A stretch of DNA of 1,828 nt from Escherichia coli (GCF_003334385.1 NZ_QOWN01000107.1); one strand, 5' to 3'; counted from the stretch's first letter, positions 1-1,828 are shown. Numbers: made by a program.

Positions 1-1828
1 GCAACCAGCATTAGTGAAAATGAAATACCGACAATCACACACAGGACCTTTGCCGGCGTTATGAGTTTGTCTGACATCTTTACCCCTTGATAGCAGTAAT
101 TAACTGGGCAACCACCCATAAAAACGGAATCAGCCAGACCAGCAAAAATTTCCAGTCCATTTTTATCATCTTCATGCTGCGGTAGCTCTCCATGCAGCAA
201 GCAGACCAGCAATCCACTCAACACCTTTTGGGGTGAATTTAACCTGCGTAAAAGCATGACCATTGCCCGCCTCGCCCGTTTTCACGCTAAACCGCCCCGC
301 ATCCAGGTGATGCGAGTAAGGCGTCATTTTTCCAGCGAGGCGATACATTATTCCGTTCTCCAACAAAAACAGCCGGAAATCGGTTTCTTTGATACCGAGT
401 AACTTAGCAACTTCCCGGAATCCCATCAGACCAGATGCTTCAACATAGTTATCAACAAATTCAGCCTTCGGCGCTGCTATTGCCAGTTGATTTTCCAGCA
501 CTGCTTTCTGTTCAGCCAGTTTTGCCGCAAATCGCAACGCCTCAGGTAAAGTCCGGGGGATCTGAATACCATGCATCGCTTTGAGTCTTGCCAGCACAGA
601 ACGACGAACGGCCTTTGACTCCCTCATGCCAACGAGCATCATCTGGTCAAAATCCAGATCATAGTATGCCGTTCTTGTCTGGTTATTGTTTAACCGGAAT
701 TTTTTTCCGGTTCCATCAAGCTCTAGCTCATCCTCAATTTTTGCAAGAAACTTACGCGGTTCATGAGGGACTTCTCCGGCTTCTGCCCGGGCTGGATTAA
801 TAATGTTATTCAGAAAATCCAGACTACTCATGGATATTTCATGATCGACAGAAATCATCTCTTTCATGGTTGATTCCTTTTAGTGATGAACCCTGCGCAC
901 AGGAATAACCAGCCCAAAGAGGGTTAACCAGACCACTGCCGGTTATCCACCAGGGCTCATCCTGAAAGGTTCTTTGGTTTATTTACGCTTGTGCGAAGCG
1001 CAGAAATGACAAAGGCACCATTACGGTGCCTCTGCGTGAAATAATGTTCCTGACTTTATTCACTTACATTTTGCCAGCTCGCAGGATTTCGTGTTATCCG
1101 CCCGCGTTGGCCAACGTCATTTTTCAGCAAAATATTCTGCTTATCTGTCGATTCCCCAGCACGCCAGCGCGCTCTCCTGGTCTCGCCGGGATACCTGACC
1201 GTAACAGTTATTTGAGCGAATACGGCAGTCCCTGCCACCGTCCTTAATCCACCAGCGAATCGCCTCACATGCTCCCCTGCGATCACCAGCATTAATTCGT
1301 TTATAAAACGTCGACGGGAAACACTTACCGGGGCCAATGTTGTACGGACAGAATGACGCGATCCCCGCTTTCTGGGGTTCGGTCAGTGGCACCCGGATGT
1401 TTTTCTCCACCCATGCCAGCGCCTTATCACGCTCAATGGCATTAACCCGGTCGCATTTTTCCTTCGACAGCTTCATGCCAGGAATAACAGGCTTACCATC
1501 CACCCGGGTGGCTCCACGGCAGATGGTCCAGATACCCGCACCATCACGGTATGCTGTGGTGTGGTTGCCTTCTTTTTCATCCAGAAACTGGTCGAGAATG
1601 TCAGGCGCAGAAGCGCCAGCGGCAATCAGCGCCAGAACGGCAGCCGATAAACCATAGCGGAGTTTTCTGCTCACCAGTTCATTCTCCCCGCGCCGCCTTA
1701 CGCCGGTCCTCTCTGATTTTGAAATACAGGTTAGTCAGATATGTCAGCAGCCCAAACAGCAGACTCCCCAGCACGCCTATTGCCGCCCACTGAGACGGGG
1801 AAACCCTGTCCAGCAACTGCAGGAACCA

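Follow-up and report, generated by a model that had tools for sequence, protein, structure and literature searches.

In the immI regions of phages P1 and P7 an upstream RNA of the same transcript, the c4 antisense RNA, controls the antirepressor operon by pairing at or near its ribosome-binding site. Two short complementary pairs are involved (a'/a2 and b'/b2 in phage P1), which differ between the phages yet remain matched. The sar RNA of the P22 immI region also controls ant post-transcriptionally by pairing over the ribosome-binding site. In phage T4, hairpins occlude the ribosome-binding sites of the lysozyme gene e, of I-TevI and of other free-standing endonucleases; the Shine-Dalgarno sequence is hidden, read-through transcripts are untranslated, and a shorter mRNA that can be translated starts from a late promoter within the hairpin. 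The pseudoknotted translational riboswitches (preQ1-II, SAM-II, ZTP) are covariation-backed leaders that end at the Shine-Dalgarno sequence. At the level of gene content, classical morons are promoter-gene-terminator units. Lambdoid morons are extra genes placed between essential late genes (Juhala et al. 2000, as cited in PMC4104026). Here we describe a structured leader RNA that resembles each of these systems in part. It was found in a stretch of 1,828 nucleotides (nt) of Escherichia coli DNA (GCF_003334385.1, NZ_QOWN01000107.1), which as a whole we call the window, in the gap between the endolysin gene (R) and an antirepressor-like gene (ant) of a lysis cassette of the Shiga-toxin (Stx) phage type.

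Compared with P1/P7 immI, the leader gives no match to the Rfam models C4 and c4-a1b1, its pairings look intramolecular, its Shine-Dalgarno sequence is held by a long hairpin, and the genes that follow it in different phages, which we call cargo, are far more varied than ant. Whereas sar is made from the opposite strand, the fold and the model score in the window lie on the sense strand, and no antisense promoter was found by scan. Unlike the T4 hairpins, the leader holds no internal promoter, by eye or by scan, and has two conserved pseudoknots; unlike preQ1-II, SAM-II and ZTP, it precedes genes that are not metabolically coherent, and no alternative conformer was identified. It has in common with the lambdoid morons terminator-bounded extra genes exchanged among phages, but in contrast to classical morons the leader cassettes show no promoter and share a structured leader instead. 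By its predicted anatomy the element is a cis-acting leader that would sequester the ribosome-binding site, unusual in its double pseudoknot and in its modular link to exchangeable phage accessory genes.

On the ant strand the RNA that ends at the start codon folds into one structure with two pseudoknots, and this structure stands at a fixed place before the start codons of many different genes in a wide range of phages. We regard it as rather probable that the gap carries the beginning of a modular accessory ("moron") cassette of the late operon, composed of a terminator-like hairpin, the leader and the cargo gene, in which the leader would serve as a translational lock that is off by default.

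The minus-strand RNA of the gap folds much better than its shuffled versions (z = -5.2, with 0 of 200 shuffles as good, and a further z of -4.5), and the hairpins P1 and P2 as well as the upstream hairpin are all present in the minimum-free-energy structure. The order from 5′ to 3′ is terminator-like hairpin, P1, short linker, P2 with the mini-hairpin P3, Shine-Dalgarno sequence and ATG. Throughout the family P1 has the form GCGC-nUCnCAC-GCGC with compensatory changes in its stem, and P3 can be followed through the states GGC/GCC, GGU/GCC and GGU/ACC. Near-invariant unpaired nucleotides are CAG and CUA at the internal loop between P2a and P2b and GGC in the apical region. The conserved structure runs directly into the Shine-Dalgarno sequence and the ATG, with no terminator after it. 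In the predicted fold the Shine-Dalgarno sequence is paired and its distance to the start codon is fixed, as in a leader that sequesters its ribosome-binding site.

The covariance model R1 was built from one sequence class only, with neither window-type rows nor pseudoknots. Its match to positions 862-1008 of the minus strand nevertheless scores 80.2 bits (E about 1e-19), compared with 17 bits for the antisense. The same model gives 144.6 bits for the leader of ST64B sb54, 76.8 for that of phi80 rha and 49.9 (E = 5e-13) for that of P22 rha. Covariation was counted in 103 distinct sequences. Standard pairs make up 95.5% of cells, compared with 81.9% in shuffles and 30-57% with slid partners, and 34 of the 39 pairs, including some in every sub-helix of P2, show compensatory changes; these pairing counts are somewhat inflated, as the nested helices were aligned to the model's own structure. 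Within a single sequence class, whose element ends were held constant by the search pattern, RNAalifold detected hardly any covariation, and more divergent classes were then added.

The pseudoknot results are free of this structure-alignment bias. Pseudoknot 1, which stands outside the model, joins the P1 loop UCNCAC to a 6-nt bulge GUGNGA in its family form; it is paired in 96.8% of cells and five of its six pairs covary. Its variable position takes all four Watson-Crick states within the family, and unrelated but complementary versions also occur (CUGACAU/AUGUCAG, UGCCC/GGGCA, CCGCAAU/AUUGCGG). For pseudoknot 2 we found more than 15 matched versions, such as CACAGAA/UUCUGUG, CGAGAG/CUCUCG and CCCGAG/CUCGGG, and within class A 99.6% of cells are paired. 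A column-wise count of pseudoknot 2 across classes was unusable, since the model alignment shifts the apical strand of the phi80 class by one column, and a register-free test was applied instead. When the strands of distinct copies were compared with their own and with permuted partners, the observed complementarity was reached in 0 of 2000 permutations for each of the two pseudoknots.

The strand of the molecule can be judged from its wobble pairs. Raw G-U and A-C cells stand at 75 to 95, which does not favor the sense strand; after three positions that are not real pairs are set aside, the counts become 69 to 20. This excess of G-U, together with the far lower scores of the model on the antisense, supports an RNA of the sense strand. 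The coordinates of all elements are collected in Table 1.

Table 1. Features of the window, with positions counted from its first letter.
Feature	Positions	Strand	Remarks
Structured leader RNA, ~145 nt, from P1 to the ant start codon	862..1008	minus	full covariance-model match
P1, small hairpin (CGCUU CGCAC AAGCG)	986..1001	minus	noted earlier as the stem-loop at 986-1000
Pseudoknot 1, 5′ strand: P1 loop CGCAC	991..995	minus	pairs with 896-900
Pseudoknot 1, 3′ strand: bulge GUGCG on the 3′ side of P2	896..900	minus	
Pseudoknot 2, 5′ strand: linker CCAAAGA, adjoining P2 without spacer	971..977	minus	pairs with 914-920
Pseudoknot 2, 3′ strand: UCUUUGG in the P2 apical loop	914..920	minus	
P2, long imperfect hairpin, ~94 nt, sub-helices P2a-P2e	876..969	minus	minimum-free-energy fold
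P3, apical mini-hairpin (GGU CUGGUUA ACC)	922..934	minus	includes the GGTTAACC palindrome
Shine-Dalgarno sequence AAAGG(A), 3′ strand of basal helix P2a	876..880	minus	pairs with CCUUU 965-969
Terminator-like hairpin (GCAGAGGCACC GUAAU GGUGCCUUUGU) with U-rich tail (UUUGUCAUUUCU)	1002..1035	minus	minimum-free-energy fold
Endolysin-proximal 3′ untranslated segment	1055..1140	minus	also in Stx-type phages without ant (Stx2c phages, TL-2011c)
Gap free of open reading frames	868..1140	minus (coding strand)	273 nt
Cargo gene: 231-amino-acid antirepressor-like protein, KilAC/ANT domain	172..867	minus	start codon 865-867
Endolysin gene	1141..1674	minus	

The element is not restricted to Stx phages. 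Matches to the gap were detected in 328 phage records, including that of 933W, where the spacer between R and ant is unannotated, and the leader part of the gap is present in 762 of 5426 complete E. coli genomes, about one in seven. In a Klebsiella phage the match is limited to the ant-proximal 120 nt of the gap; this copy stands behind a tail gene with its terminator and in front of an unrelated gene of KilA-N type. Viral contigs returned by an exact-pattern scan for the two hairpin ends number at least 120. An ATG follows the end of the element after 7-11 nt in 128 copies, and the proteins encoded downstream come from many families. A second scan, from which the first class was excluded, gave at least 120 further contigs of a "phi80 class", and by the covariance model more than 300 loci carry the leader, among them 933W ant, phi80 rha and P22 rha. 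The cargo includes three Ant families, Rha-like and KilA-N-like regulators, at least three families of HNH endonucleases, TerB and proteins of unknown function.

Among species-representative genomes the confirmed hits are almost all from Enterobacterales, with hosts that include Pantoea, Erwinia, Serratia, Yersinia pestis, Edwardsiella, Tatumella and Arsenophonus. Strong matches of Stx or phi80 type were also seen in records of unrelated taxa (loci L305, a 392-bp contig of Xanthomonas pisi; L257, a Collinsella metagenome-assembled genome; L248; L299). These are very short contigs or metagenome bins and probably reflect contamination or mis-binning, and the Halomonas copy (L262, 66.7 bits) might be genuine.

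For rha, the position of the element touches on the annotation of the gene itself. In phi80 (L125, JX871397) the annotated GTG start at 1671 lies inside the element, and the model implies an in-frame ATG at ~1707; in P22 (L318, NC_002371) the annotated GTG start at 776 is likewise inside the element and the implied in-frame ATG is at 845. Both implied ATGs are preceded by the conserved Shine-Dalgarno sequence, which suggests that the annotated rha starts in P22 and phi80 are too far upstream. With the implied start, P22 ORF201 would encode about 178 amino acids, near the 170-185 of other Rha-like cargo.

Cassettes of terminator, leader and cargo occur in tandem twos or threes (L073, L107, L017, L002). 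Locus L107 has the order R-leader-ant-Rz-terminator-leader-rha, and L073 (3372-5520, minus) carries three cassettes, the first of which is flanked on both sides by the same terminator, gagcctcgcgatgcggggcttttt, like a duplicated joint. In Edwardsiella and Arsenophonus two leader copies start only ~310-400 nt apart (L271 1328-1784; L259 12822-13278; L253 3150-3687), a spacing that leaves room for very small cargo or none. Another reading is that the sequence is conserved mainly at the level of DNA, with terminator and leader forming a shared homology arm, or recombination joint, for cassette swaps, and with the RNA fold secondary. The replacement of cargo is precise at the start codon, for the homology between the window and Stx2a phages bearing another ant allele ends at base 863, four bases into the reading frame. 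The tandem arrays in L073, L107 and L017, the repeated terminator of L073 and the presence of HNH endonucleases among the cargo fit such a role as well. Homology arms, however, need neither compensatory changes nor matched pseudoknot strands, and both the surplus of G-U cells relative to A-C and the model's unequal scores on the two strands point to a single-stranded sense molecule. We therefore judge conservation primarily as DNA to be quite improbable; a joint and an RNA role can coexist.

Copies of the leader within one locus hardly ever agree in their pseudoknots. In 14 loci with two or more copies (L073, L017, L186 and L129 among them), co-resident copies share the sequence of each pseudoknot in 1 of 16 pairs, compared with 0.30 (pseudoknot 1) and 0.21 (pseudoknot 2) expected at random. 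This divergence could reflect orthogonality of the copies or selection against recombination between repeats. It also lends weak support to a trans-acting RNA similar to c4, in which P1 and the linker would be cut out and pair, inside one cell, with the leaders' bulge and apical loop, so that control would be copy-specific and immunity-like. The two short complementary pairs, variable between copies yet matched, do resemble those of c4. Nevertheless, Rfam gives no C4 or c4-a1b1 match, no terminator or known processing signal bounds such a small RNA, and the linker adjoins P2 without a spacer, which favors pairing in cis; selection against repeat recombination would also lead co-resident copies to diverge. 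A trans-acting RNA of this kind is very unlikely in our opinion.

If the leader is a translational lock, its action can be pictured as follows. It would be transcribed on the ant strand as part of a read-through late transcript. The terminators upstream, together with the lack of a promoter (none on the coding strand of the window by scan, none evident at other loci), suggest that it would be made only by terminator read-through. In lambdoid phages the late operons are expressed by Q antitermination late in lytic growth, and the leader would then be produced. The RNA is predicted to fold into a compact double pseudoknot, whose elements can form in the order of transcription, with the Shine-Dalgarno strand inside the basal helix P2a. 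As the linker strand of pseudoknot 2 passes without a break into the 5′ strand of P2a, stacking of these helices is possible; coaxial stacking would place the Shine-Dalgarno sequence in the middle of a continuous helix, where it has no free end to fray. Pseudoknot 1 would staple the fold at its hinge, with P1 docked at the bulge. The basal arm (P2a-c) and the apical arm with pseudoknot 2 are of similar length, which fits a fold-back at the bulge. The outcome would be a default-off lock on the initiation of cargo translation. Both the repression and this stacked, folded-back geometry are suggested by the anatomy of the leader. Candidates for the opener are a host or phage factor, processing by RNase, temperature or a ligand.

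One possible refinement, which does not contradict the lock, is that the leader is a sensor, either a riboswitch or a protein operator, in which an effector (a small molecule, an RNA-binding protein, or a nucleoid protein, for instance IHF or HU) stabilizes or opens the double pseudoknot. A covarying, aptamer-like fold is present, and its complex architecture, two pseudoknots and near-invariant unpaired nucleotides speak for a sensor. The element also precedes rha in phi80 and P22, and according to PMC4936722, which cites Henthorn and Friedman 1995, IHF regulates both genes. On the other hand, the cargo genes are not a coherent metabolic set and do not belong to one pathway, the IHF DNA consensus WATCAANNNNTTR occurs in 0 of 160 distinct elements, and a conserved alternative ("on") pairing was not found. 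We consider a sensor possible but doubtful.

It is also necessary to consider that the structure acts in RNA processing or stability, as a site for RNase III or RNase E or as a self-cleaving ribozyme, so that cleavage frees the cargo mRNA and either activates or destroys it. The hairpins at the RNase III sites of T7 and lambda are comparable to P2, a hairpin of ~25 bp with an internal 3′ bulge, and double pseudoknots do occur in ribozymes. But ribozyme families of Rfam 15 give no match even at E = 1 to 10, and what all classes conserve is the pairing of the Shine-Dalgarno sequence and not a recognizable cleavage core; moreover, the pseudoknots would hinder access of RNase III. A processing role seems improbable.

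Several observations weigh against the translational lock itself. The inflation of the nested pairing counts has been mentioned above. In the second copy of L186, the middle copy of L073 and P22, the Shine-Dalgarno sequence lies only partly within P2a. Two natural variants depart from the fold: L093 (2513-2657) is a recombinant of a window-type 5′ half with a 933W-type 3′ half in which both pseudoknots are mismatched, and in L022 (1168-1301) the 6-nt bulge is deleted. Their persistence implies that the pseudoknots are not indispensable in every copy, and both could serve as natural mutants of the fold. A simple terminator scan makes no call on the upstream hairpin of the window. The argument for repression is a structural one throughout, and the lock by itself does not account for translation of the cargo.

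The first-pass annotation of this DNA had drawn attention to the gap as unusually long for a late operon and free of reading frames, and had proposed that it might hold a terminator, a promoter or operator for the downstream gene, or a small RNA. This interpretation as a whole is partly supported. The 273-nt gap is indeed free of open reading frames (the largest one wholly inside encodes at most 26 amino acids), and every motif that had been listed was recovered: the palindromes CGTTGGCCAACG at 1105-1116 and GGTTAACC at 922-929, the direct repeat ATAACCAGCC/TAACCAGACC at 905-914 and 925-934, and the stem-loops at 986-1000 and 1013-1031. The two stem-loops, the repeat, which corresponds to the 3′ strand of P2e and the P3 loop, and GGTTAACC all belong to a single pseudoknotted fold that hundreds of phages have in common. 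Their conservation across related phages, which had been suggested as a check, is seen for these pieces but not for the 12-bp palindrome, which lies in the endolysin-proximal tail and is lost in 933W. Palindromes of 8 bp occur at the chance rate (7 seen, 6.7 expected), and those of 12 bp are marginally in excess (2 seen, 0.41 expected, p about 0.05).

The idea of a small RNA holds in so far as the gap does encode a structured RNA, but this is a cis-acting 5′ leader that ends at the ant Shine-Dalgarno sequence and not a free-standing molecule. No convincing sigma-70 pair had been seen by eye, and our scan of the window agrees, as it found no -35/-10 hexamers at 16-18 nt spacing on the coding strand; the sole promoter-like site in the window is on the plus strand at 615-642. 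Neither did inspection by eye reveal a convincing promoter inside the hairpin or overlapping the upstream terminator, and none is conserved between classes. The length and good conservation of the gap and its perfect 12-bp palindrome might still speak for a promoter or operator of ant, or for an independent small RNA gene. However, the minus strand has no sigma-70-like site, operator-like conservation was not seen, the palindrome is close to chance level and absent from 933W, and the structure, which no terminator follows, continues up to the start codon through the Shine-Dalgarno sequence. The promoter, operator and independent small RNA proposals are not supported, and we hold this explanation to be extremely unlikely.

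The proposal of a terminator fares better. The hairpin at 1009-1035, which is the earlier stem-loop at 1013-1031, has the core stem GGCACC/GGUGCC and the loop GUAAU, in agreement with the G+C-rich stem and 3-8 nt loop of an intrinsic terminator, and it is followed by a U-rich tail. This tail, UUUGUCAUUUCU, has interruptions and part of it is taken up by the stem, and the simple scan did not call it. The same place, just 5′ of P1, is taken by a canonical intrinsic terminator in about 90 other loci; most loci have one there, and the hairpin of the window is weaker. Between the Rz stop codon and the terminator a motif TTGACAAGTGACTTTCAGGAAAATG is conserved in L018, L039, L098, L109, L126 and L318, and takes the form TTAACAAGTGAC... 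in L018 and in P22 (L318). Within this motif is a perfect -35-like hexamer, and its sequence is similar to that of the leader's 5′ end (CTTTCAGGA).

Upstream of the terminator-like hairpin, query positions 188-273 of the gap match Stx2c phages and TL-2011c. TL-2011c (L317, 989-1286) shares these 86 nt after R, but there the next elements, ahead of Rz, are another terminator, a strong one, and a small reading frame without annotation. Retention of this tail in phages without ant indicates that the site after R is an insertion point, or hot spot, for cassettes.

All genes of the window are on the minus strand, in the order holin end, endolysin, gap, Ant-like gene, a reading frame of 31 amino acids and the start of Rz, and over its full length the window is 97-99% identical to Stx1a phages and PhiR5_1. 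The Ant-like protein matches Pfam PF03374 (ANT/KilAC family) and PHROG 63 (anti-repressor Ant). The hydrophobic 31-amino-acid frame (MKMIKMDWKFLLVWLIPFLWVVAQLITAIKG; 80-175, minus) lies between ant and Rz, whose ATG is at 75-77; its own ATG and the stop codon of ant overlap as ATGA, so that the two may be translationally coupled, and Stx2_EH1910 annotates a longer version of 48 amino acids as hypothetical. Within the gap of Ss-VASD (L002) a 38-amino-acid "hypothetical protein" is annotated at 1689-1805, overlapping the end of the endolysin gene. The near-identical gap of the window has a stop codon in this frame and no open frame of 38 codons, and the annotated one is probably spurious. A leader peptide starting from an ATG in the 5′ arm was also considered and rejected: in the window it stops after 5 codons, and element lengths (84-95 nt) vary out of frame.

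The leader is widespread and apparently undescribed. Rfam 15, including C4, c4-a1b1, IsrK, AsxR, AgvB, STnc100 and the self-cleaving ribozymes, gives no match to the window at E <= 1, and the Klebsiella and phi80 copies reach only a chance-level 11-22 bits, compared with gathering scores of 40-86. The RNAs AsxR, AgvB and Pas were rejected as candidates, as Rfam gives no match for the window and their published positions, upstream of the holin or 3′ of stx, are not between R and ant. The conserved leader sequences were not found printed in the full-text literature, a search that most subscription papers fall outside, so that a prior description is possible. Searches of the literature on rha, KilA, antirepressors, pseudoknots and Stx lysis cassettes brought up no description of this leader RNA, those on rha and IHF gave only papers citing work of 1985-1995, a genome survey of Stx phages is silent on the gap, and the supplements of an Hfq-crosslinking paper make no mention of ECs1213-1215 or an antirepressor.

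What remains is to ask what such an element may mean for its phages. A large and well-supported RNA fold has stood unannotated in well-studied phages, namely 933W and other Shiga-toxin phages, P22 and phi80. Its presence suggests that antirepressors, Rha-type regulators and homing endonucleases of late operons are under a common layer of post-transcriptional control, and these genes influence prophage induction, cross-induction and phage competition in pathogens. A bolder conjecture, in which we place limited belief, is that the leaders form a new class of effector-responsive riboregulators that gate exchangeable cassettes, with the pseudoknots as copy-specific "addresses" that keep co-resident copies orthogonal, and that they are the missing cis element of the IHF-dependent control of rha (the Rha phenotype described in 1985-1995). 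The leader provides a concrete, mutable element with which to re-examine why the harmlessness of rha is confined to IHF-proficient hosts. For the exchange of accessory cassettes among lambdoid phages it gives a defined sequence "handle", and engineers might find in its matched, variable pseudoknot strands a natural set of orthogonal locks on translation.

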